Of a stretch of 64,000 bases of DNA, positions 32,757-64,000 are shown piece by piece; positions within the stretch are counted from its first letter, which is position 1; each line of letters opens with the position of its first letter. The stretch covers positions 14,963 through 78,962 of the forward strand of contig CAZHDZ010000006.1 of assembly GCA_964531275.1 (NCBI GenBank), in the 5' to 3' direction. Both the position numbers and the translations under genes were made by a program. The stretch comes from an uncultured Gammaproteobacteria bacterium. Its GTDB lineage: Bacteria > Patescibacteriota > Microgenomatia > Levybacterales > GWA1-39-11. The notes under the pieces are model-generated. The model had not been told where the DNA came from and made no database searches. It was given only the letters and a program-made list of their open reading frames with translations.

Positions 32757-32759
32757 AGG

Positions 32760-33074: not shown

Positions 33075-33142
33075 ACAACATTAATAGTAGCATCAATCGG
33101 ACAGATAAAACAACACGTTTTGCAAAATTTACTCTGTAGAAT

Positions 33143-35242
33143 TTACTCTATTACACTTCCCCAAACAACTGCCGTAAAGTCCTTTCGGACTAGAGGACTG
33201 AACTGAATCTTTGTAGGTACAATTTCAGATGCGCCTTGTAGTTTTTTTGCGTAGAAGATGTGAGACATAAATGCTCTTGGCTGAGGTGAAACACTCACAG
33301 AAAGCAATTCTTTTACCTTTTCCTGAGGCAATGTGCTGAAGAATATATAGGGTGAATCTGACAACTCACCACCAAAGAAATCTACTATATCCTCTACCTC
33401 CCGAGTGTTAAAGCCTAAGCTATACGCATAGTCTGCAATCCCCTTTCGAAGCTCTTTTTGAGATAGTACAACTCCAGAAGTAGGGGTTGATACGCTTCCG
33501 CGAGGAAAATCATAATCAATTTTTTTATACACACCATCTGCAAAACCTAGGTCTCCATTACTATTTGCTTCAAAATTCCATGAATTATTAGAAAGGCTTG
33601 GCACCGCAGAATCTCTACTTATGGGAGTTACCGGAGAGATGCTAACCTTTTTCTTATCCGCACTATAGACATAAATTGGGCAAGCTTCACATGCTTCATA
33701 ATTGGGGTATCCTTTCTTTTCCCATTCCTCTTCACATTCTGAACGAGGATTCTTGCGTACACGCTTTGGCTCTACAGGAACAAAAGTTCCAAGCTTAAGC
33801 TGCCTTGTCATCGTTGTTAGTTCATCAACGAGCTTTTTATTTCTTTCGATTCCTATTTTTTCTTGAGGTAACTTGGGCATAACAGATATAAATTCAAAGC
33901 TATTTGATTTATCAGGCGTTATAGTTGATATCAGTGATTTAGTCGACAAATTATAAATCTTAATTGAACTAAGCTTATTCTTATAACCGGATGGTCCTAT
34001 GCCATTACCAGTCCCCAAATTACCTCGAAATTCAATTTCATTTCCAACAAGTACAGTCTTATCTCCTGAAGGCAACTCCCCCACACTGAGTATTCTCATT
34101 GCATTTTCTGCCTTACCAACGATTGTTTGCTTGGTAAATTTTCCATCTTTATCTTTGTGAATAAGCTGTATCTCTGAGAAGGCAAGAGTCGAAGCACCAC
34201 CAACAGAATCTATCTTATATACTTCAGCTACAATTTCCATCTCCCCATCGGGACTCCCCGATACATACACAGGGTGTTTGTAATGCTCGCCTTGATCTCC
34301 AGGTGCTACGGTTACGACATTTTTCGATTCGAGATCATAAGTCTTTACGATATTTGTATTTACAATCTGGTCGCGGGTGCTATCAACATCCCCAGTTGAG
34401 GGCAGCTTGGAATTGCGACTATCAAACGAAGAAAAGAGAAGGTATTGCTGCTTGAATAAATAAGGATTACTGTTGTAGGTATTTAAAGGCAATATAACGT
34501 TCAGTGACTCATCTTTAAAGCCATAGTACAGTGCATAGCTACTCGGAATTATTGAATCAAAATACACGTTACCTGCATTTGTAATTAAAGAGGGCAATGT
34601 AATTTGAATACCTACGTCTGCTTGTTGCTCTGTCAGCCTGACAGGAGAAAGTGTGCCTTTGCTTTTTACTGCTTCTTCTAAATTAGCCTTATAAACTCGG
34701 TAGAAGTCTCTGTCGTGAGAATAACCATTTTCATCAGGGGCCTTTATTTCATACCATGCAACCCATTTATTGTCTTGCGAAAGCACATACCTATCGATTT
34801 TGTAGTCATCTTCAGGAGTATAAATTTTTCTAGTTGTACCATCTGGGCCACCTGAACTTGCGGCAATTTCCCTAAGTCCAAAAGCTCCACCGGCATCCCC
34901 ATAGTCAGTATCAGCAACATAGAATATATTTTTTCCGTCAGAAAGAGGGGTTGCAAATTTTATCTTGCTCTCAAGTAGAGTGACTGGTGAATTATTGACT
35001 CCAGAATCATTTACTGCAGAAATCGAAGTTGAATCTTCGCCCATTTCACCGTAAATAATGGTATTTACCGAGGAACGATCATCTTTAAGATCAGTCTGAT
35101 TTTCCTTTGGAATCTCTTTTCTAATGGTCCCCGGCTTTCCATTTTGGTTAGCTACACCAACAAAACCCAAGCCCAAGGCAATGACTGCAATAACAAGAAT
35201 AAGGGAGGATTTATTTTGGGACAGCTTCTCAACGCTTACCAT
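33143..35242 (-). CDS. Large (699 aa) N-terminally anchored extracytoplasmic protein, beta-rich, with a Cys cluster (CEEEWEKKGYPNYEACEACP); function unknown
   Basis: ORF track. Single N-terminal TM LILVIAVIALGLGFVGV. Confidence 0.5.
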   Translation of the reverse strand: MVSVEKLSQNKSSLILVIAVIALGLGFVGVANQNGKPGTIRKEIPKENQTDLKDDRSSVNTIIYGEMGEDSTSISAVNDSGVNNSPVTLLESKIKFATPLSDGKNIFYVADTDYGDAGGAFGLREIAASSGGPDGTTRKIYTPEDDYKIDRYVLSQDNKWVAWYEIKAPDENGYSHDRDFYRVYKANLEEAVKSKGTLSPVRLTEQQADVGIQITLPSLITNAGNVYFDSIIPSSYALYYGFKDESLNVILPLNTYNSNPYLFKQQYLLFSSFDSRNSKLPSTGDVDSTRDQIVNTNIVKTYDLESKNVVTVAPGDQGEHYKHPVYVSGSPDGEMEIVAEVYKIDSVGGASTLAFSEIQLIHKDKDGKFTKQTIVGKAENAMRILSVGELPSGDKTVLVGNEIEFRGNLGTGNGIGPSGYKNKLSSIKIYNLSTKSLISTITPDKSNSFEFISVMPKLPQEKIGIERNKKLVDELTTMTRQLKLGTFVPVEPKRVRKNPRSECEEEWEKKGYPNYEACEACPIYVYSADKKKVSISPVTPISRDSAVPSLSNNSWNFEANSNGDLGFADGVYKKIDYDFPRGSVSTPTSGVVLSQKELRKGIADYAYSLGFNTREVEDIVDFFGGELSDSPYIFFSTLPQEKVKELLSVSVSPQPRAFMSHIFYAKKLQGASEIVPTKIQFSPLVRKDFTAVVWGSVIE

Positions 35243-35246
35243 AGCA

Positions 35247-35729
35247 TTAGCTCTTCTTTACTATATTAATTTCAATCTTATCTAAATCTTTAAGAAGAAT
35301 CCATCGGTAAAAAGCCGATACTTTTTTATCATTCTTTTTTATCGTTATTTCATAACCATCAAACTCACGTATGCCACCTATCTGAGTGTCGCTGAAAGTA
35401 GTCCCCATAGTGTCAAAGAAATCTCCAAGAAAGAATGGAAACGGGATTGGATATTCCATATGTATAAGACCTGTTGCATCATGCGTATGTAGGGGGTGCA
35501 TACATGCGGTTGTTAATCCTATATTTGCCGGTACTAAAACGTCTACACCGTCTTGAATAATTTTAAGTTGTGTATGAGTATGCGTCGGACTATTATCAAT
35601 ATGCTCAACACACTGCATAAAAGCCAACTTTCTGAAGTGAAAAAATAGTATCGCAAAAATCAAAACCCCAAGGAAAAAATAAACGACAATCAGGACAACT
35701 TTACTACTAACACGATTTTTTCTAGCCAC
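35247..35729 (-). CDS. 160-aa N-terminally anchored protein with His-rich motifs (HTHTQ, CMHPLHTHD)
   Basis: ORF track. One TM. Immediately downstream of dnaK with a 4-nt gap to the next gene. Confidence 0.45.
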   Translation of the reverse strand: MARKNRVSSKVVLIVVYFFLGVLIFAILFFHFRKLAFMQCVEHIDNSPTHTHTQLKIIQDGVDVLVPANIGLTTACMHPLHTHDATGLIHMEYPIPFPFFLGDFFDTMGTTFSDTQIGGIREFDGYEITIKKNDKKVSAFYRWILLKDLDKIEINIVKKS

Positions 35730-39406: not shown

Positions 39407-40831
39407 ATGGATGAAAATAAAAAATTCTATATAACAACTGCTATTCCATACGTAAACGGAAAACCTCATATCGGCCATGCATTGGAATATTTCCAGGCAG
39501 ATACCATAAGAAATTACCAAAAACTTATCGGAAAAGAAACTCTTTTATTGTCTGGTGCAGATGAAAACGCATTAAAAAATGTTCAGGCAGCTGAGAAAGA
39601 AGGAACCCCAGTGCAAGACTTTCTAGATAAAAATTCTGAAGTATTTCGAAATGCTTTTGCGAGCCTAGGAGTCAAACTTGATGTGTTTGAAAGAGGTTCA
39701 GATTCCGTAAGTCATTTTCCTGGAGTACAGAAATTATGGAATCTATGCCTAGAAAATGGAGATATATACAAAAAAGAATACACCGGACTATATTGTATCG
39801 GTTGTGAAAGTTTTAAAACTGAGACTGACCTGGTCGATGGTAAATGTCCAGATCATTTGACAGTACCGGAAAAAGTAACAGAAGAGAATTATTTTTTTAA
39901 ATTATCAACCTACCAGAATATACTTTTAGAGAAAATTGAATCAAACGAAATTAAGATCATTCCAGAAAACAAAAAAAGTGAAATTATTTCCTTCATATCT
40001 TCAGGCTTGGAAGATTTCTCAATATCAAGAAGCAAGGAACGCGCAAAAGGAGTTGGTGTACCTGTTCCTGGTGACCCAAACCAAGTAATGTATGTATGGT
40101 TTGATGCATTAGCGATTTATATTACTGGAATTGGTTATGGAACAGATGAGGAAAAATTTCAAAAATGGTGGCCCGCAGATGTACATGTTATAGGCAAGGA
40201 TATTAATAGATTCCACACAGTCTATTGGCCTGCAATGTTGCTCTCCGCAAAATTGCCACTTCCAAAATGTGTTCTAATTCATGGCTTCATTACATCCAAT
40301 GGACAAAAAATGTCAAAAACATTAGGCAATGTCATAGATCCTTTTGAAATGGTAGAAAAATTTGGACTTGAACCATTTAGATATTTTCTGCTTTCCCAAG
40401 TTCCTACCAATGATGACGGTGACTTTACCCAAGAACGCTTTAAAGAAGTCTACACATCAGAACTTTCAAATGGCTTAGGAAATTTAGTCGCAAGAGTCGC
40501 AAAGCTGGCAGAAAATAATAATATTTCAATAGATCCATATGATAATTCGTTTGTTCCCGAGGTTGAAGATGATCTTAAAGACTTTAGATTTAACATAGCG
40601 ATACAAAGAATAAGAGGGGTCATAGCGGCGCTTGATAAATCAGTAAATGAAAGTAAGCCATGGGAGTTAAAAGGAAATGAGGCGGTAAATGTAATAACGG
40701 TACTTTCGAAAGGAGTCCAACAAGTTGCATTTAATCTACAGCCATTTCTTCCAGACACTGCCAGAAAAATTTTGAACCAATTTTCGGGAGAAATCAGAAG
40801 CTCTAGCCCCCTATTCCCTCGCTTAGGCTAG
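39407..40831 (+). CDS. metG: Methionyl-tRNA synthetase (short form, no C-terminal tRNA-binding extension)
   Basis: A PYVNGKPHIGHA HIGH-type motif, KMSKTLGN (KMSKS), and a CxxC...C zinc knuckle. Confidence 0.95.
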   Translation: MDENKKFYITTAIPYVNGKPHIGHALEYFQADTIRNYQKLIGKETLLLSGADENALKNVQAAEKEGTPVQDFLDKNSEVFRNAFASLGVKLDVFERGSDSVSHFPGVQKLWNLCLENGDIYKKEYTGLYCIGCESFKTETDLVDGKCPDHLTVPEKVTEENYFFKLSTYQNILLEKIESNEIKIIPENKKSEIISFISSGLEDFSISRSKERAKGVGVPVPGDPNQVMYVWFDALAIYITGIGYGTDEEKFQKWWPADVHVIGKDINRFHTVYWPAMLLSAKLPLPKCVLIHGFITSNGQKMSKTLGNVIDPFEMVEKFGLEPFRYFLLSQVPTNDDGDFTQERFKEVYTSELSNGLGNLVARVAKLAENNNISIDPYDNSFVPEVEDDLKDFRFNIAIQRIRGVIAALDKSVNESKPWELKGNEAVNVITVLSKGVQQVAFNLQPFLPDTARKILNQFSGEIRSSSPLFPRLG

Positions 40832-41987: not shown

Positions 41988-42842
41988 ATGAAACGAAAAC
42001 TTCTCCTTGGCCTATCTATAATATTAGTTGCTTCTGGATTATTTCTGTTGGTTAGAGTTATCTATTCATTTCGAGATATTGAAAAGGGGGGACTTCAAGT
42101 AACTGCAAACGTGCATGGCCGCGTATTGTTAGACGGAAAAGACATCGGTGAAATCCCAGTAAGAAAAACTAGCTCAACAGATACTGTCCCCGTTGGAAAT
42201 TATGAATTAAGAATAGAGCCGGAAGATACAACCTTATCCTCATATACGGCAAGGGTACGCATCAATGGCGGAGTACTGACAGCTGTTGATAAAACATTTC
42301 TACCAGGGTCTCTAGGAAGCGCATATGCGTTAACTCTTGAAAAAACACAGAATCAAAAACCTAAAATTGATATTACCTCTGTTCCTAGTGGTGCTCTAGT
42401 TACGATAGATAGCGTTGCTGTAGGAGCAACTCCTTACTCCTCTGATTCCCTATCAGCATCAGAGCATGAAATTGAAATTCAAAAAGAGGGATTTGCAAAG
42501 AAAACAATTCGGGTAAAAACTGTAGAAAAACATACGCTAGTTGTTAGTGCGGCGCTTGGGACCGGAGACATTGGGACAGTTCAGATTCCAGCCAACATAT
42601 CACCGACACCTTCAGTTTCCGCTTCTCCAACTCCAGTGGTTGCTGCAACAACCATTACAATTCTCAAAACTCCTAATGGGTTCTTAAGAGTAAGAAGCGG
42701 ACCGAGTACTTCTTTCGGCGAAGTAGCACGAGTGAGACCTGGCGAAACCTACACGATAATCACTCAAGAAAATGGATGGTATCAGATACAAGCTGAAGGA
42801 GTAAATGGCTGGATCTCAAGCCAATTTGCTAGTGTAAATTAG
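41988..42842 (+). CDS. Membrane-anchored protein with PEGA domains and a C-terminal bacterial SH3 (SH3b) domain
   Basis: A PEGA motif (VTIDSVAVGATPYSS...HEIEIQKEGFAKKTIRVK) and an SH3b motif (GFLRVRSGPSTSFGEVARVRPGETYTIITQENGWYQI). Confidence 0.7.
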   Translation: MKRKLLLGLSIILVASGLFLLVRVIYSFRDIEKGGLQVTANVHGRVLLDGKDIGEIPVRKTSSTDTVPVGNYELRIEPEDTTLSSYTARVRINGGVLTAVDKTFLPGSLGSAYALTLEKTQNQKPKIDITSVPSGALVTIDSVAVGATPYSSDSLSASEHEIEIQKEGFAKKTIRVKTVEKHTLVVSAALGTGDIGTVQIPANISPTPSVSASPTPVVAATTITILKTPNGFLRVRSGPSTSFGEVARVRPGETYTIITQENGWYQIQAEGVNGWISSQFASVN

Positions 42843-42845
42843 CAC

Positions 42846-43811
42846 TTAACCTCCTATAAAGTAGATAATAAATATTACTAAAAATCCCCAAATTATGACT
42901 GATGCCAACAACGGTTTATCTGAAAGTAAAACCTTATCTGGGCTTTCACCCTCCTTCTTCTCGTAAATATCTTGAAGATAGCGCATTACTCCATAGATTA
43001 CAGGAAGTATCGTTATCATCAACCATTTCCTATTAAAATAGGAAGGTAAAAATTCTGGCAAAAGAATATCCAAGCCAATATGCAGACCTCGGGGTGTTGC
43101 CAAGAATGTGAATAGACCATAGAACACAAATGTACTTGTCGCAAAAATTGTTGAGAATGAATCAAGAAGTGCTTCTGAATAATGAGATAATGTTTTTCTG
43201 ACTTCGTCAATTTTTGCTCCCTTTACATTTTGTAGAAGTGTTAATTCAGACCTCCTTTTTCCAACAGCAAGAAAAAGAGACAATGAAACGGCTGTCAATA
43301 GCAGCCATATCGATGTGTGGAAGTTTGAGATGGCTTCTCCGGCAAGTATTCGTAAAATGTATCCTGTAGCAATAAAGAGAATATCAAATATTGTTATTGA
43401 TTTGAAAATTGTTGAATAGAGCACCTGAAGCAACATATAGGCAATACCAATAACTACAAAGAGATAACTTGTGTTAATTGCTATTGTGAATGCTGCGACC
43501 AGCATGACAACAAGAAGAACCAATGCTTCTGGGACAGATACTTCACCATTTGCGATAGGTCTGTGTCTTTTAAAAGGATGAAGTCTATCCTTCTTAACAT
43601 CAAGGATGTCGTTAAAGATATATGTTGAAGAAGCAAACAGACAAAACGCAACAAATCCGCTGACTACTTGAAAGAAAAGATCGGGGTTAAAAAGTTGGCC
43701 GGCAAATGTAATACCAGCAAAAAGGGCCGAGTTCTTTATCCACTGTCGTGGACGTAATAATTTCAGGACATAGTATAAATGCCTAATCATTGTATTCCCT
43801 CTTCCCTGCAA
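42846..43811 (-). CDS. UbiA-family prenyltransferase of the decaprenyl-phosphate 5-phosphoribosyltransferase (DPPR synthase) type
   Basis: RPRQWIKNSALFAG...FNDILDVKKDRLHPFKRHRPIANG: the NDxxDxxxD motif and the characteristic DPPR-synthase N-terminus. Confidence 0.75.
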   Translation of the reverse strand: MQGRGNTMIRHLYYVLKLLRPRQWIKNSALFAGITFAGQLFNPDLFFQVVSGFVAFCLFASSTYIFNDILDVKKDRLHPFKRHRPIANGEVSVPEALVLLVVMLVAAFTIAINTSYLFVVIGIAYMLLQVLYSTIFKSITIFDILFIATGYILRILAGEAISNFHTSIWLLLTAVSLSLFLAVGKRRSELTLLQNVKGAKIDEVRKTLSHYSEALLDSFSTIFATSTFVFYGLFTFLATPRGLHIGLDILLPEFLPSYFNRKWLMITILPVIYGVMRYLQDIYEKKEGESPDKVLLSDKPLLASVIIWGFLVIFIIYFIGG

Positions 43812-44835
43812 TTCGCAGCATAAATATAAAACCTAACACTACAACTACTACCAACATTATAACAAAAAGTTTTCCTCTACTCGAAGCACTTAATGCAACT
43901 ACTCCTAAGATTAATGACATTAACCAATAAAATACTGCAATACTTCTATGTCCCATTCCATAATTTAGAAGCAAATGATGAAGGTGACCTCTATCATGCC
44001 AAAACGGAGATTTCTTTGAGAGAATTCTTCTTATTATAGTAATTGCAGCATCAACGCTTGGAACTCCCATAACAAGAACTGCAGTAGCAAGTTTGACTCC
44101 TGAAGTTATTGATAGAATTCCAATAAAATATCCTAGTATCGTTGCGCTATAACCTGGAAAAATTTTAGCCGGATAAAAATTGAAAAAGAGAAATCCAAGA
44201 GATGCTCCCCCAACTATGAACGAAAACATTGTTGTTACATAACTCATCTCTTCCACAGATAGGAACCGTAAGGCAGCTATGCCTATCACGAAAGATGAGA
44301 TTGCTGCAATACCAGGCATTTGTCCGTCAACACCCTTACTCCAATTCAACATGTTCATAACCCACACAATCCAGACTATCGCGAGAATGTCTCCAAAGCG
44401 AAGTGTCATAAAAATCAGGTCCATTGAAAAGTCGGTAAAATGCAATATTCCTCCAAAAGGATTGGTTATAAAAGGAATAGTAACCCCAGCATATACTGCT
44501 ATTGCGGCAGCCAGAATATTAATCCCAAAGCGAATATATGGGGAAAGATCGTATTTGTCATCAAGAACCCCCGTAACAACAACTATTAAACCTCCCAGTA
44601 GTAAGGTGAGTGTAAATGCGTCAAGTGGTGTAAATATCAATGCAGCAACTGCAATACCAGCATAAATGGCAAGTCCTCCAGCACGAGGAATGGGCTTTTT
44701 GTGAAGCAAGGCGGGGTGCTTATGGGTCTTAGGATCGTCAATAAGATTTGCCTTCTTGGCAAATTTAATAACCAAAGGAACAGACAAAAGAGAAACAAGG
44801 AATGCTACAACGGGTGCCCAAATAAATTCTTGCAT
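43783..44835 (-). CDS. Glycosyltransferase family 4 polyprenyl-phosphate N-acetylhexosamine-1-phosphate transferase (WecA/TagO-like rather than MraY)
   Basis: HKKPIPRAGGLAIY and the DRGHLHHLLL motif (WecA DxxHxHHRL). Confidence 0.75.
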   Translation of the reverse strand: MQEFIWAPVVAFLVSLLSVPLVIKFAKKANLIDDPKTHKHPALLHKKPIPRAGGLAIYAGIAVAALIFTPLDAFTLTLLLGGLIVVVTGVLDDKYDLSPYIRFGINILAAAIAVYAGVTIPFITNPFGGILHFTDFSMDLIFMTLRFGDILAIVWIVWVMNMLNWSKGVDGQMPGIAAISSFVIGIAALRFLSVEEMSYVTTMFSFIVGGASLGFLFFNFYPAKIFPGYSATILGYFIGILSITSGVKLATAVLVMGVPSVDAAITIIRRILSKKSPFWHDRGHLHHLLLNYGMGHRSIAVFYWLMSLILGVVALSASSRGKLFVIMLVVVVVLGFIFMLRIAGKREYND

Positions 44836-45188
44836 TAAAATGTTAAAAATAAAATCTGTAAATAAGCTAACAGCCCAAGGAGCAAGAACAAAAAAGTATT
44901 GAACATTACAATTCTAGCAACCAGAACATACTTAGAATACGCAAATGAAGCTTGCAGTATATTTGCCATAAATATCCCAAGGAGAAGAAGGGGAAGAAAG
45001 ATGGATACTGAAGAACTAACCAGCCTATCCTCGCCCCATGGCATACTATTAAAAAAGGGTATCAGTGGAGGTAGATTTGAATAAGTTGCAATAATAATTG
45101 CAGTAAGGGGAATAATAAATAAAAAGGATAAAACAAGTGATATCCTCACAAATTGATCGGAGATAATTAGTTTAAATTTGCCTTTCAT
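44835..45188 (-). CDS. Small 3-TM membrane protein within the glycosyltransferase operon
   Basis: ORF track; overlaps both neighbours. Confidence 0.4.
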   Translation of the reverse strand: MKGKFKLIISDQFVRISLVLSFLFIIPLTAIIIATYSNLPPLIPFFNSMPWGEDRLVSSSVSIFLPLLLLGIFMANILQASFAYSKYVLVARIVMFNTFLFLLLGLLAYLQILFLTF

Positions 45189-46608
45189 AAATCTTTGTTC
45201 CTTCCATAATATATCTTAAATGGTACGAAGATAATATATCATTCACCAATGGTCCGTCGACTGTCTGAATTATATACTTTGGCTTTGCCGTTTCAATCTC
45301 TTCTTTTGTAACAATGTCTGCGTTTTTATAGAATTTAATGTGATATGCAACTATATATTTCCCAATTGGAAGCTTATTTGATAAAGCGTAAATCTGGGGA
45401 CTGTCAGACCACAGGAATACACTTTCTTCTGGCGAGACATTCATGGCTATAAAGTTAGCAACATTATAATCTCGTGGAGTATTGGCATCGAAAAAATATT
45501 CATATTGGATAATACTTTTACCCCCCGTCATAAATTCCAAATAATTTTTATAATACGGGATTGTTTTTTTATAAATTTGAAAATGAAAATAACCAATAAA
45601 TGAAATTGCAATTATCATAACCATGCTTATAATTTTGCCTTTTCTATTTTCCAAAATATGTCCAAAAAGTAATGAAAATGCAGGCAACAGAACCAAAAGA
45701 TAATGTGTATATGGCCGATCTGAAAAGAACGCACTGTACAAGCCGAATATAACCCACATATATATAAAAATTGTTGCTTTGGAAAATTTGCTACGCCTTA
45801 AAAACAGCAAAAGCGTAACAAATCCAAGAAGTATTGTTTTGATAATAAGAATACCCATTGGAAATACAAAGGCATTTTCCTCACCTACGTAGGAAATATT
45901 CTGAATAAAAACAGCGCTGATAAAATCTGTTAAGGCACCTAAAAAGAAAAACACTATTCCTGCAAGAAACGTCAACGAAAACGCGCATAGTAAAAAGATA
46001 CTGTATGGTCTTACATCAATTCTATTTTTCTGGAAAGAACTTACCGTTATAAGAAATACCAAAAAAGCAGCCACATCAAAAATTGCAACTACTTTTGTTA
46101 ACAATGCAACTGCAAGGAGAAGACCGGAGATTGCCATATGCACTTTCTTTTGAGATTCAACAAAACAAAACGCATAATATGCAGCAAATATTACGGGGAG
46201 CAACATAAAGTTTTCGGCATTTGCAATATTTCCCTCTAGAAGAGGTGTGCCAAATAAAAATGCGTAAATCCCAACAGAAATATATCTCGCTTTTTTACTT
46301 ACGAATAGCTTAGTGCTAAGGAGGTAAAATGCAAAAATTGAACAGAGCCCGCTTAATAAGGACAGTAATTTAACAAAATATAAATTTCCATTTACTGCGG
46401 CGTAGATAAGATAGAGAAGCGGGGGCTTATTGTCCCAGATATCCTGATATAGGACTCTCCCATCCAACAGCGCTCTGCCAATTACCTGATAGATTCCTTC
46501 ATCTCCATACCAATGCGGTTCTGCAAGTGAGGGGATTCGAAGTAATACAAAAAATGTAGAGATTAATAAAAGTACCCAGGCGGTTTTGTGCTTTCTGAAT
46601 TTCTCCAT
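45172..46608 (-). CDS. GT-C-fold glycosyltransferase (family 39/83, ArnT/PMT-like) polytopic membrane protein
   Basis: Periplasmic-loop motif HWYGDEGIY (DE/DD motif). About 12 TM. Confidence 0.7.
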   Translation of the reverse strand: MEKFRKHKTAWVLLLISTFFVLLRIPSLAEPHWYGDEGIYQVIGRALLDGRVLYQDIWDNKPPLLYLIYAAVNGNLYFVKLLSLLSGLCSIFAFYLLSTKLFVSKKARYISVGIYAFLFGTPLLEGNIANAENFMLLPVIFAAYYAFCFVESQKKVHMAISGLLLAVALLTKVVAIFDVAAFLVFLITVSSFQKNRIDVRPYSIFLLCAFSLTFLAGIVFFFLGALTDFISAVFIQNISYVGEENAFVFPMGILIIKTILLGFVTLLLFLRRSKFSKATIFIYMWVIFGLYSAFFSDRPYTHYLLVLLPAFSLLFGHILENRKGKIISMVMIIAISFIGYFHFQIYKKTIPYYKNYLEFMTGGKSIIQYEYFFDANTPRDYNVANFIAMNVSPEESVFLWSDSPQIYALSNKLPIGKYIVAYHIKFYKNADIVTKEEIETAKPKYIIQTVDGPLVNDILSSYHLRYIMEGTKIYERQI

Positions 46609-46610
46609 AC

Positions 46611-48146
46611 TTAAACTTTTTCAGTTACCTTATACTCAAGTCTCTTACCGCTAATAAGCTGGAGATGGGAAATTAACGCAGGGAGTGCTGATAAGAAAAA
46701 TCCCCCAATTGGCATAAATAAGAATTCCAAAGGAAAAAGTATTTTTCGAAGCGTTGAATATTTATGCTTACTTTTCTTAGGACCCAATGTATAGTCAACG
46801 TAAATCATGGCAAGTATAGAAACCAAGCAAAGGGTTAATATAAACGAAGAGATTTGAGGAAGAGTGTATCCAAGACTAGTTCTAGTAAATACAGGATTAA
46901 CTAAAGCCACAAGATTGGCAGAAACGGTAATAATGAACCAGTTAACCGGCCACAATATATGATCCACCAATACATTAACGATTAATGCAGTTTTTCTCCA
47001 AAAAGGTATCCCTGGAATTGTAAGATACCACTTCACATATGTTGCATCATCAGCAATCCCCCAAGACCATCTTCTTTCTTGATGATATTTATTGATAAGA
47101 CTTCTCTTATATGTCTGGGACTGCGCTGCATCCATTGAAGTTTTGAGGAATATCGGCTCAACCACTACCCTCCCCTTGGTTTTGAAAAACGCCTTAAAAA
47201 ACACTCTATAATCTTCTGGAATAACATCAACATCCCAATTCCCAATATCCATCAGTAATTTATATGAAAGGGTATATACAGAATTTGGAACAAGGCGAGC
47301 ATGCTGAACGAGTACTGACGTGCGCCAAAGACTTCCGAAAAAAGAAATAACTCTTGTAAAAGATGGAACCTGCCAGAAGTTATTATATGTGACATTTGCT
47401 GACTGCCAGAAAGTAAAGAGTGGGTCAGGAATGGTTAGGAAAGAATATGCAAGATACGAGAAAAATGCTTTATCGAATAGCACATCTGCATCAGCTGAGG
47501 TTACTGTCATAAAGTTAATATCAAGCTTCCCTGATTTAACGAGTCTTTTATAAGCATCTGCAGCAGCGAACGCCTGATTTGAAGATTTTCCCTTAACCTC
47601 ATTCGGAAGATCAGGGTGCAAGGTATAATAAAAACCACCAAATATTTTTTCGTACTCTTTTTTCAATTTGTCTCCCTTAACGCTAACCTCCTCTTCTCTT
47701 GCTTCAAAAGCCATATAAATGTGCATTTGCTTCTTAGGAAATGTCTGGTCATTAATACTCTCAAGTGTTTCTTTTATTTTTTCGTAGCTTTCTTTATAAC
47801 TTGGAATAACAATGAGATGATTTATCTTGGAAAAATTAGGTAATTTTTCTGCCATAGAAAGCCAGTCGGTTTTCTCAGCTGCTCTAATCTTTCTTGCTGC
47901 AATAAATGACATTATTACAAGATTTACTGCCTTATAGAACCAGTACACATCGAAAATAATAATAAAATAGGAAAGAGCGACCGGGAAAAAATAGGCACCC
48001 CACAACGGCATTGTTATCAAAAATAATGCAATGAGTGGAGGAATTATCTCCAATGCCCTCCGGGATTTTACAGGATACCGAGTGAAAAGACGATCAAGTA
48101 TTGTATGCATGTTAGCAGCTAAAAACTGAATGGAAATTACGCTCAA
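46611..48146 (-). CDS. Membrane-embedded processive family-2 glycosyltransferase (cellulose/chitin-synthase-like) with QxxRW motif
   Basis: IVIPSYKE, DQT and D,D motifs, and QERRWSWG (QxxRW). TM helices flank the catalytic domain. Confidence 0.75.
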   Translation of the reverse strand: MSVISIQFLAANMHTILDRLFTRYPVKSRRALEIIPPLIALFLITMPLWGAYFFPVALSYFIIIFDVYWFYKAVNLVIMSFIAARKIRAAEKTDWLSMAEKLPNFSKINHLIVIPSYKESYEKIKETLESINDQTFPKKQMHIYMAFEAREEEVSVKGDKLKKEYEKIFGGFYYTLHPDLPNEVKGKSSNQAFAAADAYKRLVKSGKLDINFMTVTSADADVLFDKAFFSYLAYSFLTIPDPLFTFWQSANVTYNNFWQVPSFTRVISFFGSLWRTSVLVQHARLVPNSVYTLSYKLLMDIGNWDVDVIPEDYRVFFKAFFKTKGRVVVEPIFLKTSMDAAQSQTYKRSLINKYHQERRWSWGIADDATYVKWYLTIPGIPFWRKTALIVNVLVDHILWPVNWFIITVSANLVALVNPVFTRTSLGYTLPQISSFILTLCLVSILAMIYVDYTLGPKKSKHKYSTLRKILFPLEFLFMPIGGFFLSALPALISHLQLISGKRLEYKVTEKV

Positions 48147-48930
48147 TTTGAGCCTCTAGTGTATTATATGCAATTCCTTTAGCCTTAGCAATGAAGTCTA
48201 AAATGAGGGGAATATTTGCGGGAGTATTCCTTTGCCCTCTCACTACTTGAGGAGACAAAAAAGGGCTGTCTGTCTCTGTTAATATTCGATCATACGGAAC
48301 ATATTCAATAAGATCTAGCAGACTTGTACTTTCTCCCGGCGGGACACCACCATATGTAATATTTCCATCAAATCCAGTATAAAATCCCATTTCTAGAACT
48401 TTTTTTGCAAACTCTTTGCTCCCTGAAAAACAGTGAAACATGCCCGGCACAGGCAATAATTGCTCTTTGTAGTCGGAAAGGATTGATAGTGTTTTGTCCC
48501 AAGCAAGACGTGTGTGGATTTGCAATGGTAGCGAGAGTTTTATGGAAAGTTCAATTTGCTTTCTGAATGCATCTTCCTGAAGGTCTTCGGCTACAATCCC
48601 ATTCGTTCTGTAGTTCCAAAAATCCATACCAATCTCTCCGATGCCTATTACTTTTGGCATCTTTGCAAGCTTCTCTAATTCGCTCAACCATTCAGTATGC
48701 AATTCTCCTTCAAATTCGATGTCGGATTTGTCTGCGTGGTGCGGGTGAACACCAACGATTGCATATAAATTCTCATATTTTTGAGCTAATTCTACAGTTT
48801 TTCTTGAAGAAGGTATAGAAGTTCCTGTATTTACAATTGTTGTAACTCCTTTTTCGTATGCGTCTTTTATAACGTCGTCTACGTCACTATCGAATTTATG
48901 GAAATTTAAGTGACAATGTACGTCTATCAT
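48112..48930 (-). CDS. tatD: TatD-family metal-dependent hydrolase/DNase
   Basis: MIDVHCHLNF start and a conserved His/Glu/Asp scaffold. Confidence 0.85.
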   Translation of the reverse strand: MIDVHCHLNFHKFDSDVDDVIKDAYEKGVTTIVNTGTSIPSSRKTVELAQKYENLYAIVGVHPHHADKSDIEFEGELHTEWLSELEKLAKMPKVIGIGEIGMDFWNYRTNGIVAEDLQEDAFRKQIELSIKLSLPLQIHTRLAWDKTLSILSDYKEQLLPVPGMFHCFSGSKEFAKKVLEMGFYTGFDGNITYGGVPPGESTSLLDLIEYVPYDRILTETDSPFLSPQVVRGQRNTPANIPLILDFIAKAKGIAYNTLEAQIERNFHSVFSC

Positions 48931-48932
48931 AA

Positions 48933-49577
48933 TTAAGTCATCGGTGAGATCAATGGAACCATTTTAAAGTTTTCGTCTTTGTAAGCAGGATCGGCAATAT
49001 CTATGAAGTTGTTAATAATGAAGCAATTCCTATCGTTACCTTTTCTGTCTTGGAATATAGTTTCTGTTCTAACGAATATATCATTCCAAGGATTAGATTT
49101 TTTTTCTTTCTCCTGGCTATGCATTATGCCAACATATTCCGCCACGCTACCTCGTCTAACACTTACTCCAGCAACTTCCTGTTCGAATCTTGATGCAAAT
49201 TCATCAATCTGCTCAGTGCTCTCATCAAATGTCATATTATTGCTACCCTCCAACGCCACTTCGGGTAAAATAGCGTATTCAGAATTTTCTGGCCACGAAA
49301 AGAGCAGTCTTTCAATTTCCTGGTCGCTAATTAAGCCCGCGCTCATACTCCTAAGTCTGTCTTTTTTCTGCTCAACAGTAAGACCACTACTACCAACCTG
49401 GATAATTTTGCAACCTTTTGCAATCAAAGACTCTCTGGTTGCTTCAGAAAATTGTCTTGTTGGATTCTTAACTTCTTCTTTATGCGGCAACAAACCTACT
49501 GTGTCTGCTGCAGCCTTTAGGGGAAGCGGTTGATCCAGTGCAAGTTCTCCATCCATAGTAATTAGTATACCAACCAA
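48933..49577 (-). CDS. Hypothetical protein (214 aa)
   Basis: ORF track only. Confidence 0.4.
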   Translation of the reverse strand: MVGILITMDGELALDQPLPLKAAADTVGLLPHKEEVKNPTRQFSEATRESLIAKGCKIIQVGSSGLTVEQKKDRLRSMSAGLISDQEIERLLFSWPENSEYAILPEVALEGSNNMTFDESTEQIDEFASRFEQEVAGVSVRRGSVAEYVGIMHSQEKEKKSNPWNDIFVRTETIFQDRKGNDRNCFIINNFIDIADPAYKDENFKMVPLISPMT

Positions 49578-57492: not shown

Positions 57493-58116
57493 ATGCAAAA
57501 GAATACTGAAAAAATAACAGCAGAGTTAAAGGCATTAATAACGAGAGGAAATACTAGTCTTAACGATGCCAAAAACAAACAAAAAGCAGTCGCGTATCTT
57601 TATATAATCTTTTCATTTATTGCACTCTCATTTTTCGGAATATTTGCAATTGGCCCAACCATTGCAACGATTTCTGACCTTAACAAGCAGTATGAGGAAA
57701 AAACTACTGCGCTTAAGCAACTTGAAGCAAAAAATGCTGCGCTTAAAGCGTTGGGCGCAAAATATATTGATATCCAATCAGATCTTCCGCTTATTGATGC
57801 CGCCATACCTCTCAGTCCAAAGGTGGGAGAATTAACCAGACAACTTGAGGCATTAACTCTTAGCAATGACTTAGTTGTTCAAAAACTCGATACTGGACTG
57901 ATGGAACTATACCCTGCAATAAATAATACGTCGTCTGTATTTGCATACACATTTTCTATTAGTGTCTCAGGAACCGAACAAGACATAAATAGATTTATTG
58001 GAGATGTCATAAATATGGGCAGAATGGTAGGAATAGATAAGCTGACTACGGGAAAAAAGCTTGAAAATATCTATACTGCATCAATAACAGGAAAAGCTTA
58101 TTTTATCAAAAACTAA
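57493..58116 (+). CDS. PilO-like type IV pilus assembly protein
   Basis: Short N-terminus, one TM, coiled coil, then an alpha/beta domain. Position after the PilN-like gene. Confidence 0.55.
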   Translation: MQKNTEKITAELKALITRGNTSLNDAKNKQKAVAYLYIIFSFIALSFFGIFAIGPTIATISDLNKQYEEKTTALKQLEAKNAALKALGAKYIDIQSDLPLIDAAIPLSPKVGELTRQLEALTLSNDLVVQKLDTGLMELYPAINNTSSVFAYTFSISVSGTEQDINRFIGDVINMGRMVGIDKLTTGKKLENIYTASITGKAYFIKN

Positions 58117-59836: not shown

Positions 59837-61588
59837 ATGCCGATTATTACATCTAAATTTTTAAAACACACTATCGCGCTTTTTATTTTTCTCAGTGCTT
59901 CCACCTATCTAACTTTCCCACTCATCTTTAACTTAAAGGATTATGTCCCTGGTACTGTTGATGAATTGTATATAACATGGATTCTCAACTGGGATATTCA
60001 TTCAATAGCAACAAATATTTTTACCCTCTTTCATGGCAATATTTATCATCCTTTCCCTTACGCAACTGCTTTTTCCGATCTACATTTAACATCTGCTTTT
60101 ATTGGAATACTTCCGGTACTCATCACTCAAGAGCCGCTCACTGCATACACAGTTAATTTATTTCTTTCTTTTGCCTTATTAGGATTTACCATGTACCTAC
60201 TTGTGCATTTTCTAACAGATGATTTTTGGGCATCCATGGTTTCCGGAGCAATCTTTGGATTTTCAACATACCTCCTACCAAAGCTCGGGCATCTACAAGT
60301 TCTTACAACGTACTGGATTGCACTTTCTCTACTTTGTTATTTCGCATATATAAAATTCGGAAAATTTAGATATTTTTTACTATGTATATTATTCTTCTAT
60401 CTTCAGTTCGTAAATAGTTTTCAACCTGCATACTTCTTAGTAGCATGCCTAATTACAATTTCTTTTTATGAGGTTCTTACAAAAAGAAAAAGCATTTCAT
60501 TCTTTATCAATAAAAGAACTGCTATCGTAATCTTTGCAACACTGTTACTATCAATTCCCATAATATATCCCTACTACTACACGTCTTTGACCCAAGGGTA
60601 TACACGCGACGTTCGAGAAGCAATTCACACTGCAAATAGACCAGAACATTTCTTTCTTAGTTATGGAAGATCTCATATTGGGCCAACTCTCTACACTCTC
60701 CTCTATAAATCTCCTGGGCCCTTCTTATATGATGGGTACCGAGGCTTAGTAAGCATAATCCTTACCTTTATAGTACTTTTTTATTCACTTTTTAAATGGA
60801 AAAAACAAAAGCCAAATTATTTCTCTTTATTTATAGGAATCGCAATTAGCATGTATGTAGTAAGTCTTGGACCAGCATTTCAACTTGGTGGAAAAGTTAT
60901 AAAAGAACCATTCTTGATCCCTCTTCCCTATGCATTACTCTACTACATAGCTCCCGGGTTTAAAGGCTTTAGAAATTCTGGGAGATGGGAAATGTTTGAA
61001 ATATTTGCCTTCTGCGTAGCAATTGGGATTTTCCTAGCTTTTATGCTTAAAAAGCACAGAATACTAAAAATATTCATCAGTAGTGTTCTTTGTATTCTTG
61101 TACTAGCAGAATTTACATTTCCAATAAAATATATGACGGTTCCATCAAGGGAAAATATTCCAGAAGTTTACAAATTTCTCGCAATGACAAAAGAAGACTC
61201 GATTATTGCAGAATTTCCAATCTACAATTGGAACATGTCCCCATACTCTTCCGACGAGAATATTAGATTGTATTTTTCAACCTACCACTTAAGAAAAACT
61301 ATTAACGGAGGAGGAGGTTTCTCGCCATTTCCATGGCAAAATATAGTTGAAAAACTCGCATCCAGTTTTCCAAGTGAAAGCTCAATAGTAGAGCTTAAAA
61401 AATTGGGAATAAATTACATAGTTGTGCATGAAAAAGAATTTGACAAACTGTTTTTAGATAAATACACGGTATTCGGCTATAGCATTCCAAATTCTAAAAT
61501 GGTAAAAACTATGTTACTGGAAAATAGATCTATTAGATTAATAGATACATTCGATAGAAATGATAGTGTATATGAAATCATCTACTAA
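59837..61588 (+). CDS. Polytopic membrane protein with large C-terminal soluble domain; probable GT-C-fold glycosyltransferase-like protein
   Basis: About 11 N-terminal TM helices followed by ~150 aa that are non-membrane. Family not recognised with confidence. Confidence 0.45.
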   Translation: MPIITSKFLKHTIALFIFLSASTYLTFPLIFNLKDYVPGTVDELYITWILNWDIHSIATNIFTLFHGNIYHPFPYATAFSDLHLTSAFIGILPVLITQEPLTAYTVNLFLSFALLGFTMYLLVHFLTDDFWASMVSGAIFGFSTYLLPKLGHLQVLTTYWIALSLLCYFAYIKFGKFRYFLLCILFFYLQFVNSFQPAYFLVACLITISFYEVLTKRKSISFFINKRTAIVIFATLLLSIPIIYPYYYTSLTQGYTRDVREAIHTANRPEHFFLSYGRSHIGPTLYTLLYKSPGPFLYDGYRGLVSIILTFIVLFYSLFKWKKQKPNYFSLFIGIAISMYVVSLGPAFQLGGKVIKEPFLIPLPYALLYYIAPGFKGFRNSGRWEMFEIFAFCVAIGIFLAFMLKKHRILKIFISSVLCILVLAEFTFPIKYMTVPSRENIPEVYKFLAMTKEDSIIAEFPIYNWNMSPYSSDENIRLYFSTYHLRKTINGGGGFSPFPWQNIVEKLASSFPSESSIVELKKLGINYIVVHEKEFDKLFLDKYTVFGYSIPNSKMVKTMLLENRSIRLIDTFDRNDSVYEIIY

Positions 61589-61594: not shown

Positions 61595-62878
61595 ATGAAA
61601 ATCGGAATAATTGGCGCTGGATTTACTGGACTTGCATCTGCTTACTATTTACAGAAATTGGGTCATGAAGTGACACTATTTGAACGATCTAAAAACCCAG
61701 GTGGCCTTGCAATAGGCTATAAAGAAAAACCATGGAAGTGGACCTTGGAGGAACATTATCATCACTGGTTCACTAACGACAACAGTGTCCTTAACCTTGC
61801 TAAAGAAATTTCTCACCCAGTTATAATAAAAAGGCCAAAGACCTCTTCTTTTGTAAAGGACTCTATATACCAGTTGGACTCCCCTCTTTCTCTTCTTAAA
61901 TTTCCAGAGCTTTCTTTAATTGAAAGAATTAGAACGGGTGTCTCAATTGCATTCCTACGATTTAACCCTTTTTGGAAAATCTTTGAAAATTTTAATGCAG
62001 AACCTTATCTCATATCTACAATGGGAGATCATGCATATGGCAAAATTTGGAAACCACTTATGGTTAATAAATTAGGTAAATATTCTAAAAAGGTCTCTCT
62101 GGCATGGTTCTGGGCAAGAGTCTACAAAAGAACACCAAGTCTTGCTTACCCGGAAGGCGGCTTTCTGGAATTCTCAAAACACCTTGAGAAAGTTATAACA
62201 AAAAAAGGTGGCACCTTTCATTATGAATGCGACGTAACAAACATTTCATCTGTCAACCATCCAAAGGTAACAGTTGCAAGAAAAGATAAAAAAATAACGC
62301 TGGATTTTGACGCGATTTTAGTCACGACACCAATGTTTGCGTTTTCAAAAATGGCACCGTCACTTCCTCAGGAATATGTCAAAAAGTACTCAAAACTAAT
62401 AGGCATTGGTGCCGTAAATGTTGTCTTAAGACTAAAAAAACAATTTTTTAACGACGAAACATATTGGCTAAATATGTGTGATGAAAGATCTCCAATACTT
62501 GCTATCGTAGAGCATACAAATTTTATGCAGAAGAATAAATACAACAATGAACACTTGCTATATATAGGTAACTACATGGAAATTGATGACAAAAGATTTA
62601 CCATGAACAAAGAAGAGTTACTCAAGCTATATGACCCCTGGCTAAAGAAAATTAACCCGGATTATAAATCAGCAATAATAAGCTCGCAGATTTTTAAAGC
62701 ACCATTTGCACAACCAATAATTCCAAAGCACTATTCAAAAAAGATTCCACCTTTAGCAACCCCTTTAGCAAAGGTCTATCTTGCAAATATTCAGCAAGTT
62801 TATCCTTGGGATAGAGGAACCAATTATGCTGTTGAGCTGGGGAAAAAAGCAGCCGAAATCATTCATGAATCTTCATAA
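61595..62878 (+). CDS. FAD/NAD(P)-binding oxidoreductase (amine-oxidase/PPOX fold; some resemblance to UDP-galactopyranose mutase)
   Basis: MKIGIIGAGFTGLASAYYL...ERSKNPGG dinucleotide-binding motif. EHYHHWFTND resembles the Glf HIFHTND region. Confidence 0.6.
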   Translation: MKIGIIGAGFTGLASAYYLQKLGHEVTLFERSKNPGGLAIGYKEKPWKWTLEEHYHHWFTNDNSVLNLAKEISHPVIIKRPKTSSFVKDSIYQLDSPLSLLKFPELSLIERIRTGVSIAFLRFNPFWKIFENFNAEPYLISTMGDHAYGKIWKPLMVNKLGKYSKKVSLAWFWARVYKRTPSLAYPEGGFLEFSKHLEKVITKKGGTFHYECDVTNISSVNHPKVTVARKDKKITLDFDAILVTTPMFAFSKMAPSLPQEYVKKYSKLIGIGAVNVVLRLKKQFFNDETYWLNMCDERSPILAIVEHTNFMQKNKYNNEHLLYIGNYMEIDDKRFTMNKEELLKLYDPWLKKINPDYKSAIISSQIFKAPFAQPIIPKHYSKKIPPLATPLAKVYLANIQQVYPWDRGTNYAVELGKKAAEIIHESS

Positions 62879-64000
62879 TTTTTCTTCAAAATATATACTT
62901 CCCTATTTCGTATTCTATTTCCTAACCATTGGGCTTTTTTTGCGAACTTATGATTTATTTTGGGACACTCCCTATTTCTTTCATCCAGACGAAAGGAACG
63001 TAGCATCTCTTGTTACCGACAACATCACAAAGCCCAGCTATAAAATATTATATTCTGGAACATATTCTTACGGAAATTTTATCCCTCTATACACAACAGG
63101 AATACTTGCGCTTACAAAACCAGCACTTAATTACATTAACGACGATACCTTTGTTCAAGCTATCTTTCTTTTAAGAGTTAATACTATTATTTTTTCCCTA
63201 CTATTACTTTATCTCGTTTTCCTTGCGGGAAGCCTGTTCTCAAAGGCAATAGGAAGACTTGCTCTTGTACTGGCGACTTTCAATATAGGCCTGATACAGC
63301 ATTCTCATTTCGGAACAGTTGATATTTTTGCTACATTCTGGATCTTCTTAACTTTTTATTTACTTGCATTACTAGTGCTTCGACTGAAGCATTCATATCT
63401 ATATCTTTCAATCTTTTCTCTTGCAATAGCATGCTCTGCAAAATTAAATAGTGGTATTTTTATCGTCATTTTTGGGATTGCTTTTCTTTATTACATGAAA
63501 CAAAGAAAAGAGAAAAAATCATATGTTGTGGCCTCAGCATTGCTTGGGCTATCTCTCCTTATGACGACCACATTGATTCTTTCGCCTTACTACGCGACTG
63601 TGGATTTTGCCAACTTATTTAAATACGAAAGAGAAATGGTAACTGGTGTTTTTCCGGTTTTTTATTCTGGCTCATTCATTGGAACAGTACCTGTTATTTT
63701 TCAATTTACCTCAATCTATCCCTTTATGTTAAATGTTGCAGTTGCCGCCCTGCTACCCATAGCCCTAGCATATACATGCTTTGTAGCGTTTAAGAAGAAA
63801 AGCAAGATACTCTCTCTAACTCTGCTTGGATTTCTAGTTCTTTTCATACCATCATCATTTCTGTATGCCAAGTGGAGCAGATATTTACTACCAACAATTC
63901 CTTTCGTAATTATTCTTGTGTCATATTTTATAATCAAAATTTCTAATAAGAGTCGTATGCTTAAAATAAGTGTAGCTTCGATTTCTCTTTTGTTTGCGTG
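62865..64000 (+). CDS. GT-C-fold glycosyltransferase family 39 (PMT_2/ArnT-like) membrane protein, 3'-partial at the window end
   Basis: Own translation from ATG 62865: MNLHNFSSKYILPYFVFYFLTIGLFLRTYDLFWDTPYFFHPDERN... (DE motif). Polytopic, open to the end of the window. Confidence 0.6.
   Translation, partial: MNLHNFSSKYILPYFVFYFLTIGLFLRTYDLFWDTPYFFHPDERNVASLVTDNITKPSYKILYSGTYSYGNFIPLYTTGILALTKPALNYINDDTFVQAIFLLRVNTIIFSLLLLYLVFLAGSLFSKAIGRLALVLATFNIGLIQHSHFGTVDIFATFWIFLTFYLLALLVLRLKHSYLYLSIFSLAIACSAKLNSGIFIVIFGIAFLYYMKQRKEKKSYVVASALLGLSLLMTTTLILSPYYATVDFANLFKYEREMVTGVFPVFYSGSFIGTVPVIFQFTSIYPFMLNVAVAALLPIALAYTCFVAFKKKSKILSLTLLGFLVLFIPSSFLYAKWSRYLLPTIPFVIILVSYFIIKISNKSRMLKISVASISLLFA

Follow-up and report, generated by a model that had tools for sequence, protein, structure and literature searches.

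Organization of the gene block

The 64,000-nucleotide stretch analyzed here (hereafter, the window; contig CAZHDZ010000006.1 of assembly GCA_964531275.1) is assigned by GTDB to the Levybacterales, a lineage of Patescibacteriota, and carries a block of six minus-strand genes between positions 42846 and 48930, as delineated from the open reading frame (ORF) list with corrected starts. In the direction of transcription, the block encodes a TatD-family hydrolase, a membrane-integrated family 2 glycosyltransferase (GT2), a GT-C fold glycosyltransferase, an orphan 117-residue membrane protein (mp117), a WecA-like transferase (GT4), and a UbiA-family enzyme resembling Mycobacterium tuberculosis Rv3806c. 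An initial annotation made from the sequence had described this region as a polyprenyl-phosphate-sugar glycan operon, and its minus-strand ORFs lie where it placed them, with neighbors that overlap or sit 1–2 nt apart. Using corrected starts, TatD is separated from GT2 by 1 nt and GT2 from GT-C by 2 nt, while GT-C overlaps mp117 by 17 nt, mp117 overlaps GT4 by 1 nt, and GT4 overlaps UbiA by 8 nt. The most likely start of both UbiA (314 amino acids) and GT2 (499 amino acids) is an internal ATG, which gives lengths matching those of their relatives.

The UbiA-family enzyme

The last gene of the block (42846..43790, minus strand) encodes a member of the UbiA superfamily (PF01040) with no extra domain. 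It scores above the cut-offs of two NCBIfam models for decaprenyl-phosphate phosphoribosyltransferase, NF008978 (215.5 bits, cut-off 207) and NF008977 (234.4 bits, cut-off 234), whereas no model for heme O synthase, 4-hydroxybenzoate prenyltransferase, chlorophyll synthase, or archaeal lipid enzymes exceeds 53 bits. One further UbiA-family model, NF006088, gives 174 bits and falls short of its cut-off of 351. A full-length alignment (residues 15–308) was obtained with M. tuberculosis Rv3806c (PDB 8j8j, E = 2.3e-32), and in the HMMER alignment to this structure all seven of the Rv3806c residues K28, N73, D77, Q135, Y138, K143, and K208 are identical. In Rv3806c, these residues bind Mg2+ and the ribose, 5-phosphate, and pyrophosphate moieties of phosphoribosyl pyrophosphate (PRPP), with K28, Q135, Y138, and K143 contacting the ribose and 5-phosphate (PMC10994848).

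Judged by sequence, the enzyme is of the Rv3806c phosphoribosyltransferase type; it does not group with the prenyltransferases for quinones, heme O, or chlorophyll. The initial annotation had called it similar to decaprenyl-phosphate 5-phosphoribosyltransferase (DPPR synthase) and had asked for its clade membership to be examined; the two passed cut-offs, the full-length alignment, and the retained PRPP/Mg2+ site bear this out, and the phosphoribosyltransferase models (215–234 bits) stand clear of the best model of any other clade (53 bits, aside from NF006088). We therefore refer to it as a putative polyprenyl-phosphate 5-phosphoribosyltransferase. A Levybacteria relative is already called 'decaprenyl-phosphate phosphoribosyltransferase' in public annotation.

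The GT-C and GT2 glycosyltransferases

The GT-C gene (45172..46608, minus strand) encodes a PMT_2/GT39-like enzyme recognized by PF13231 and by its fold. Searching the GT-C and GT2 sequences against PDB sequences with phmmer returned nothing useful, and fold searches took over. The AlphaFold model of the GT-C protein (pLDDT 91, built on 39 sequences) matches STT3, AglB, DPY19, and ArnT in Foldseek, i.e., it has the multi-transmembrane GT-C fold. The loop after the first transmembrane (TM) helix, which is the first extracytoplasmic loop, contains a conserved EPxWYGDEGIY sequence in which E30, P31, W33, and Y34–Y40 are invariant and whose DE pair we take to be the acidic motif of PMT-type enzymes. 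The protein is no nearer to the Aft/Emb-type arabinofuranosyltransferases than to other GT-Cs. Thus, the ArnT/PMT-like GT-C enzyme of the initial annotation is confirmed by domain and fold, and it is predicted to use a polyprenyl-phosphate-sugar donor outside the membrane.

The neighboring GT2 (46611..48110, minus strand) has no significant Pfam match in its window copy, and its relatives match PF13632. Its predicted structure (pLDDT 84) places a GT-A domain between two N-terminal and several C-terminal TM helices. The top Foldseek matches are the Chlorella virus and Xenopus hyaluronan synthases, BcsA, and chitin synthase, with E-values of 1.6e-9 to 1e-6 and TM-scores of only 0.4–0.5. The sequence signatures of this class are all present: D207-A208-D209, E299-D300, and Q344-E345-R346-R347-W348 are invariant or nearly so among relatives. 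The processive QxxRW-type GT2 proposed at the outset is therefore upheld at the level of fold and motif, within the limits of these modest TM-scores. The model also fits a DPMS-like enzyme, PcManGT (E = 1.4e-7, TM-score 0.58 on the target), a point to which we return below.

The WecA-like GT4 protein and mp117

The GT4 gene (43783..44835, minus strand) encodes a predicted polyprenyl-phosphate N-acetylhexosamine (HexNAc)-1-phosphate transferase of the WecA/MraY superfamily, with ten predicted TM segments and a PF00953 score of 88.9 bits (cut-off 27). Its best NCBIfam match is WecA (TIGR02380, 106.8 bits, below the cut-off of 326.05), followed at a distance by MraY (TIGR00445, 48.6 bits, below the cut-off of 192); among solved structures, it finds MraY chains only (E = 9e-13). 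By these scores it is a member of the PNPT superfamily, nearer to WecA than to MraY, and a candidate initiator that would make a polyprenyl-pyrophosphate-sugar primer. The earlier description of a WecA-type transferase is thus sound for the superfamily, but the score falls short of the WecA equivalog cut-off.

Between GT4 and GT-C lies mp117 (44835..45188, minus strand), a protein with three predicted TM segments. The window copy matches no Pfam or NCBIfam family, and a Pfam scan of 26 relatives gave no recurring family and no flippase family. It is nearly always 117 residues long among the 76 distinct copies extracted, and the loop after TM1 carries a PWGxxRL motif in which W51, G52, and R55 are invariant. 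The family comprises 344 matching representatives among 1.84 billion, and every one of the 150 matches listed is a small, stand-alone protein of 99–172 residues. A role for mp117 as a flippase or accessory subunit is speculation.

Conservation of the block in Levybacteria

A scan of one genome per species gave 328 UbiA relatives, of which the best 80 were kept. The gene order TatD-GT2-GT-C-mp117-GT4-UbiA is collinear in 66 of the 67 Levybacteria loci that have enough upstream sequence, and this invariance suggests that the six genes serve a single pathway. The observation is thus real, and the block is strongly conserved; its best explanation is a conserved Levybacteria envelope-glycan operon. 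The one departure, L074 (MFNL01000001.1, 6306–10957), keeps TatD, GT2, mp117, GT4, and UbiA but is missing the GT-C gene from the block, and no GT-C was found within 10 kb on either side.

Median identity to the window proteins is 63% for UbiA, 60% for GT2, 59% for GT4, and 56% for TatD, and falls to 44% for GT-C and 41% for mp117, the least conserved members relative to the window. Such low conservation would fit changing acceptors or surface exposure. The surroundings of the block have been rearranged: in the clade to which the window belongs, GroES/EL sits upstream of TatD, whereas in a second clade it lies beyond the PEGA-SH3 gene that faces UbiA.

Most relatives whose records carry a specific name are listed as Levybacteria/Levyibacteriota or 'Patescibacteria group', and three other names occur. 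Many of the block-carrying records of metagenome-assembled genomes (L005–L084) are titled 'uncultured Gammaproteobacteria bacterium', and there is one Candidatus Eisenbacteria and one Candidatus Parcubacteria. Shared gene order and 56–96% identity to named Levybacteria suggest that these non-Levybacteria titles are mislabels. Proteins that match those of the window exactly or almost exactly belong to metagenome-assembled genomes named Candidatus Levybacteria or Levyibacteriota, which puts the window in the Microgenomates of the Candidate Phyla Radiation.

A proposed pathway for a lipid-linked pentose

The initial annotation had proposed a lipid-linked pentose donor for the GT-C enzyme, and this remains the best reading of the sequences, because an Rv3806c-type UbiA with its PRPP/Mg2+ residues is encoded in a conserved block together with a PNPT initiator, a GT-C, and a synthase-type GT2. 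The relevant precedent was described by Kelly et al. (PNAS 2024, PMC11127046): the attachment of alpha-linked pentofuranose side chains outside the cytoplasm by a polyprenyl phosphoribose synthase (PPPRS) acting with a flippase and a GT-C. In that work, PPPRS and GT-C yield alpha-linked ribofuranose side chains by default, an SDR epimerase redirects the product to xylofuranose, and candidate arabinofuranose systems carry DprE1/DprE2 homologues (PMC11127046). As expected of such a three-component system, UbiA and GT-C are encoded together in 66 of the 67 Levybacteria loci. We consider it somewhat better than an even bet, on the strength of these sequence comparisons, that the block is a variant of the published pentofuranose pathway coupled to a synthase-type polymer.

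In general terms, the reaction can be rationalized into four steps. (i) Donor synthesis: at the cytoplasmic face, UbiA would transfer 5-phosphoribose from PRPP to polyprenyl phosphate, as its homology to Rv3806c indicates. (ii) Maturation and flipping: a phosphatase from outside the identified block genes would remove the 5-phosphate, and polyprenyl-phosphate-ribofuranose would be flipped to the outer face; the sugar would stay ribofuranose unless converted by an epimerase encoded elsewhere. (iii) Transfer: GT-C, whose fold suits this step, would hand the pentofuranose to an acceptor outside the membrane. (iv) Decoration: the likeliest acceptor would be a polymer that the hyaluronan-synthase-like GT2 synthesizes and exports and that may be primed on polyprenyl-pyrophosphate-HexNAc from GT4. 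Priming of this kind is known from synthase-dependent O-antigen pathways.

The choice of sugar depends on what accompanies the block. Searches within the genome were confined to the 64-kb window, and window-wide negatives cover its scanned proteins, which are all but seven small ORFs at 4.2–17.5 kb. No DprE1 or DprE2 homologue, the check that the initial annotation had suggested, and no Glf was found among the scanned proteins, and the GT-C does not side with Aft/Emb over other GT-Cs; we therefore take ribofuranose as the default sugar, and the product would most likely be a surface polymer made by the synthase and bearing ribofuranose.

Several points weigh against this pathway. UbiA clears the NF008977 cut-off by 0.4 bits only. 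Neither a flippase of the GtrA/SMR or MATE type nor a phosphatase of the HAD or PAP2 type was found in the block or the scanned part of the window; the MOP-superfamily gene closest to the block is a canonical MurJ at a distance of ~6 kb (TIGR01695, 253.5 bits, cut-off 235.55), and across 26 members mp117 could not be related to any flippase family. Hyaluronan-synthase-like enzymes usually work without a lipid-pyrophosphate primer, so the coupling of GT4 to GT2 is a guess. The GT-C need not be the donor's sole user, because L074 keeps UbiA, GT4, mp117, and GT2 without it. Lastly, an epimerase may lie beyond the 64-kb window, in which case arabinofuranose or xylofuranose is possible.

Genes adjoining the block

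The first gene of the block encodes a TatD-family metal-dependent hydrolase (48112..48930, minus strand; PF01026, 249 bits; TIGR00010, 238.7 bits, cut-off 206), which lies upstream of GT2 in every full-block locus. In the second clade (L038–L083), a homologue of the methionyl-tRNA synthetase gene MetRS, located at 39407–40831 in the window, is found upstream of TatD and is its nearest detected upstream gene in 18 of 19 loci examined; TatD-MetRS is a usual housekeeping pairing. This order implies that a rearrangement split MetRS from TatD in the window's clade and left TatD joined to GT2. Because of its canonical TatD/YchF-type score and its MetRS neighbor in the second clade, TatD is probably a housekeeping passenger that is co-transcribed with the block and unrelated to glycan function, and its listing as a member of the glycan operon is not sustained. 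The same two observations led us to reject TatD as the missing 5-phosphatase.

Upstream of TatD, after a gap of 2 nt, the window has orf214 (48933–49577, minus strand), a 214-residue ORF without a family match that precedes TatD on the side of GroEL. Detected in only one of 84 related loci, that of the closest relative, L022 (79% identity), it was excluded from the operon and represents an insertion specific to this lineage, so the operon does not extend to 49577 as first annotated.

Convergent with UbiA is a gene for a membrane-anchored surface protein with PEGA (PF08308) and SH3_3 (PF08239) domains (41988..42842, plus strand), an arrangement that recurs in 81 of 84 loci at a distance of up to 2.5 kb from UbiA. 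The protein has one N-terminal TM segment and, in translation, a Ser/Thr/Pro-rich linker, and could be a wall-associated partner or acceptor.

The flavoenzyme locus

A second set of genes of interest occupies the end of the window (59837–64000). Its central member is an FAD-dependent flavoenzyme of the amine-oxidase/CrtI fold class (61595..62878, plus strand), in which PF01593 (Amino_oxidase) spans residues 10–423, and which scores 384.7 bits against NF005560, a 'hypothetical protein' model with a cut-off of 252. The Pfam scan gave no GLF domain (PF03275). When a profile of 27 homologues was compared with known enzymes, UDP-galactopyranose mutases matched the N-terminal FAD motif only (the first ~60–94 residues), whereas monoamine oxidases aligned over the full length. 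An identity as Glf was rejected on these grounds; the assignment to Amino_oxidase/NF005560 is an outcome that the initial annotation, which had seen a Glf/PPOX-like flavoenzyme, named as contrary to its proposal.

The end of the flavoenzyme gene is overlapped by that of a second, PMT-type GT-C (62865..64000, plus strand), which is cut by the window end and scores 25.8 bits against PF02366 (cut-off 22.7) and 24.6 bits against PF13231, with a weak match to TIGR03663; hhalign aligns its HPDE sequence beside the YGDE of the block GT-C. On the other side, between a conserved 464-residue fn3-like protein and the flavoenzyme, lies a 583-residue polytopic membrane protein (59837..61588, plus strand) for which nine TM segments are predicted, the first of them followed by a D-E pair. 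This protein has no Pfam, NCBIfam, or PDB match, its hhalign probability against the GT-C profile is 0.5%, and none of 80 related flavoenzyme loci has a homologue at this position. Thus, of the two additional GT-C-like proteins first reported here, the one at 62865–64000 is substantiated by PF02366, but the 583-residue protein belongs to no detectable family.

In the 80 related loci (L085–L164; flavoenzyme identity 51–69%), one to three genes for polytopic membrane proteins, most of them PMT-type GT-Cs, usually come next after the flavoenzyme gene on its strand; in two loci, the first of these proteins has 737–738 residues, with a DUF2298 match in L085. In four loci, a second Rv3806c-like UbiA gene, whose product is ~40% identical to the window UbiA, intervenes between the flavoenzyme gene and the GT-C genes; its best NCBIfam matches are the same phosphoribosyltransferase models at 177–188 bits, below their cut-offs. 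A number of loci have a soluble ORF of ~350 residues among or after the GT-C genes, identified as an NAD-dependent SDR epimerase/dehydratase (PF01370) in all three examined (L091, L127, and L164). Several loci have such an SDR epimerase, a methyltransferase, or a GT1 nearby.

Overall, this gene set (e.g., L113 8001–15448, L143 8001–15177, and L164 8001–15941) looks like a variable glycan-modification island, in which context alone ties the flavoenzyme to GT-C/lipid-linked sugar chemistry. One could imagine that the flavoenzyme is a non-homologous replacement of DprE1 that oxidizes polyprenyl-phosphate-ribose, with the SDR protein finishing the epimerization, and that mp117 is a new polyprenyl-phosphate-sugar flippase or a GT-C subunit; we hold this combined proposal to be a long shot. 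The flavoenzyme-GT-C association and mp117 are the parts of the system most likely to hold something new.

Other features of the window

The block is surrounded by chaperone genes (GroES/EL, DnaK, GrpE, HrcA, DnaJ, ClpB, and Hsp20) and by those for MetRS, LepA, MurJ, and ribosomal protein S20, along with type IV pilus genes. The latter lie at 9120–11880 and 57493–58116 and include a PilB-like ATPase (T2SSE), a PilC-like platform protein (T2SSF), and a PilO-like protein. GC content is 35–42%. No tRNA or Rfam element was found in scans of the window, and promoter and terminator scans between 41.3 and 52 kb gave counts not above those of shuffled sequence.

Two ClpB-like AAA+ proteins are present (5623–7995 and 27551–30436, the latter on the minus strand), and the second gene is followed by a subtilase (25359–27056) and a small protein with a fervidolysin-like prodomain. 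Beside dnaK, three successive minus-strand ORFs of 766, 699, and 160 residues (30456–35729) have no Pfam match; in relatives, a small ORF downstream of dnaK is a weak T4SS_pilin match and is followed by a large protein without assignment. A NodU/CmcH-type carbamoyltransferase (20681–22399), an EamA transporter, and an ornithine/diaminopimelate-type decarboxylase are grouped at 20681–24421. The carbamoyltransferase, 20 kb from the block, could modify a glycan or a metabolite.

Alternative interpretations

One rival reading would make UbiA an ordinary aromatic or lipid prenyltransferase (i.e., for menaquinone, heme O, or ether lipids) and the glycan an artefact of gene adjacency. Membership in PF01040 and the NDxxDxxxD motif agree with it, but both are common to the whole UbiA superfamily, and the 215–234 bits against at most 53, the conserved counterparts of Rv3806c K28, Q135, Y138, and K143, and the full-length alignment with Rv3806c bring it close to refutation; we give it almost no weight. 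The initial annotation had hinted at an arabinogalactan-like glycan; in such a pathway, epimerization of the lipid-linked ribose would give arabinofuranose, from which the GT-Cs would assemble an arabinan attached to a galactan-like polymer. The combination of a PNPT initiator, a processive GT2, an Rv3806c homologue, and several GT-Cs does parallel the logic of mycobacterial arabinogalactan (PMC11127046), and the second Rv3806c-like gene and SDR epimerase of some flavoenzyme loci could supply an epimerization step. However, the scanned part of the window has no DprE1-type protein (PF01565), DprE2, or Glf, the flavoenzyme is not Glf, and the GT2 is by fold a membrane synthase, unlike GlfT2, which is a soluble polymerase. 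The arabinogalactan-like label is not supported by these results, and we judge such a glycan distinctly unlikely.

Two further interpretations keep the pentose donor and divide the labor differently. GT4 and GT2 might make one polymer while UbiA and GT-C, side by side with them, O-glycosylate proteins such as type IV pilins or PEGA-SH3 with pentofuranose. The GT-C does match models of the PMT family, whose members are protein O-mannosyltransferases, PilB, PilC, and PilO-like genes are encoded in the window, and PEGA-SH3, with its Ser/Thr/Pro-rich linker, is kept beside UbiA in 81 of 84 loci. A DPPR synthase orthologue has, moreover, been proposed as the donor source for pilin O-glycosylation (PMC11127046), the model being the arabinosylation of Pseudomonas aeruginosa pilin mentioned by Kelly et al. 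(PMC11127046). Against this, the pilus genes do not adjoin the block, being ~13 and 31 kb away, and the collinearity of the six genes in 66 of 67 loci suggests one pathway; we regard the division as unlikely, yet worth keeping in mind. Alternatively, GT2 could be a polyprenyl-phosphate hexose synthase (GtrB/DPMS-like) that feeds the adjoining GT-C, with the UbiA product serving other GT-Cs, such as that at 62865. The fit of the GT2 model to PcManGT, the adjacency of the GT2 and GT-C genes, the retention of UbiA in L074 without this GT-C, and the presence of more GT-Cs at the flavoenzyme locus all speak for it. The invariant QERRW, ED, and DAD motifs, the two N-terminal and several C-terminal TM helices, and the best whole-length matches to hyaluronan, cellulose, and chitin synthases speak against it, as, to our knowledge, GtrB-type enzymes lack QxxRW. 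We consider this arrangement improbable.

Significance and comparison with known systems

The envelopes of bacteria of the Candidate Phyla Radiation (CPR, or Patescibacteria) are a matter of almost no experimental knowledge, yet their surfaces mediate attachment to the host. The block predicts a testable surface chemistry, in which a lipid carrier supplies a pentofuranose, in the simplest case ribofuranose, that is transferred outside the membrane to a polymer made by the synthase. If true, this would extend the pentofuranose modification pathway to ultrasmall bacteria with reduced metabolism and would point to unknown components, namely a phosphatase, a flippase, and possibly an epimerase. 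The strategy of carrying a pentose on a lipid is known in bacteria but has not yet been described in ultrasmall bacteria such as Levybacteria, and our literature search found no paper tying decaprenyl, DprE1, or phosphoribosyltransferase enzymes to CPR bacteria. The view that such a glycan is unexpected in CPR organisms holds to the extent that no paper making the link was found, but public annotation already names a Levybacteria decaprenyl-phosphate phosphoribosyltransferase. With the core enzymes recognizable by standard models and one relative already annotated, the finding is useful rather than startling.

Parts of the block recall several established pathways. The GT2 shares its fold and the DxD, ED, and QxxRW motifs with the enzymes of synthase-dependent pathways (i.e., hyaluronan synthase, BcsA, and chitin synthase), but is only 10–15% identical to the solved synthases, and no cyclic di-GMP (c-di-GMP) link or accessory subunits are evident. 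In Salmonella, the O:54 antigen is a WecA-primed, synthase-type O antigen, and the likeness lies in a GT2 near a WecA-like initiator. Gtr-type glycosylation (GtrA-GtrB-GtrC, or CsbB/GtcA/YfhO in Firmicutes) similarly relies on a lipid-phosphate-monosaccharide donor and an outer-face GT-C, as is proposed here; the donor synthase of the block is, however, a UbiA-type PRPP enzyme instead of a GtrB-type GT2, and there is no GtrA homologue.

The mycobacterial decaprenyl-phospho-arabinose (DPA) pathway (Rv3806c, Rv3807c, DprE1/DprE2, and Aft/Emb) begins with a homologous enzyme that has the same conserved PRPP site, and the pathway proposed here follows the overall logic of arabinogalactan assembly, in which a PNPT primes the polymer and a lipid-linked pentofuranose provides its decoration outside the membrane. 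Unlike the mycobacterial pathway, the scanned part of the window has no Rv3807c-type phosphatase, DprE1, DprE2, or Glf, the GT-C of the block is not Aft/Emb-like, and its GT2 is a membrane synthase.

The closest parallel is ORF15-ORF14-ORF12 of Citrobacter youngae O1/O2 (PMC11127046), in which an Rv3806c-like PPPRS is paired with a GT-C and the presence or absence of an epimerase sets the sugar, with ribofuranose as the default. The Levybacteria version differs in several respects: its UbiA protein has no fused HAD phosphatase domain, the block has no MATE or GtrA-type flippase, and its GT-C is PMT_2/GT39-like by Pfam (the GT-C class of the three-component systems being CAZy GT136). The block also adds a PNPT initiator, a hyaluronan-synthase-like GT2, and mp117, and its host is a CPR bacterium. 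In summary, the block is, as far as testable, not a member of the DPA/arabinogalactan pathway; it resembles mycobacterial arabinan synthesis more remotely, and works like the system of Kelly et al.

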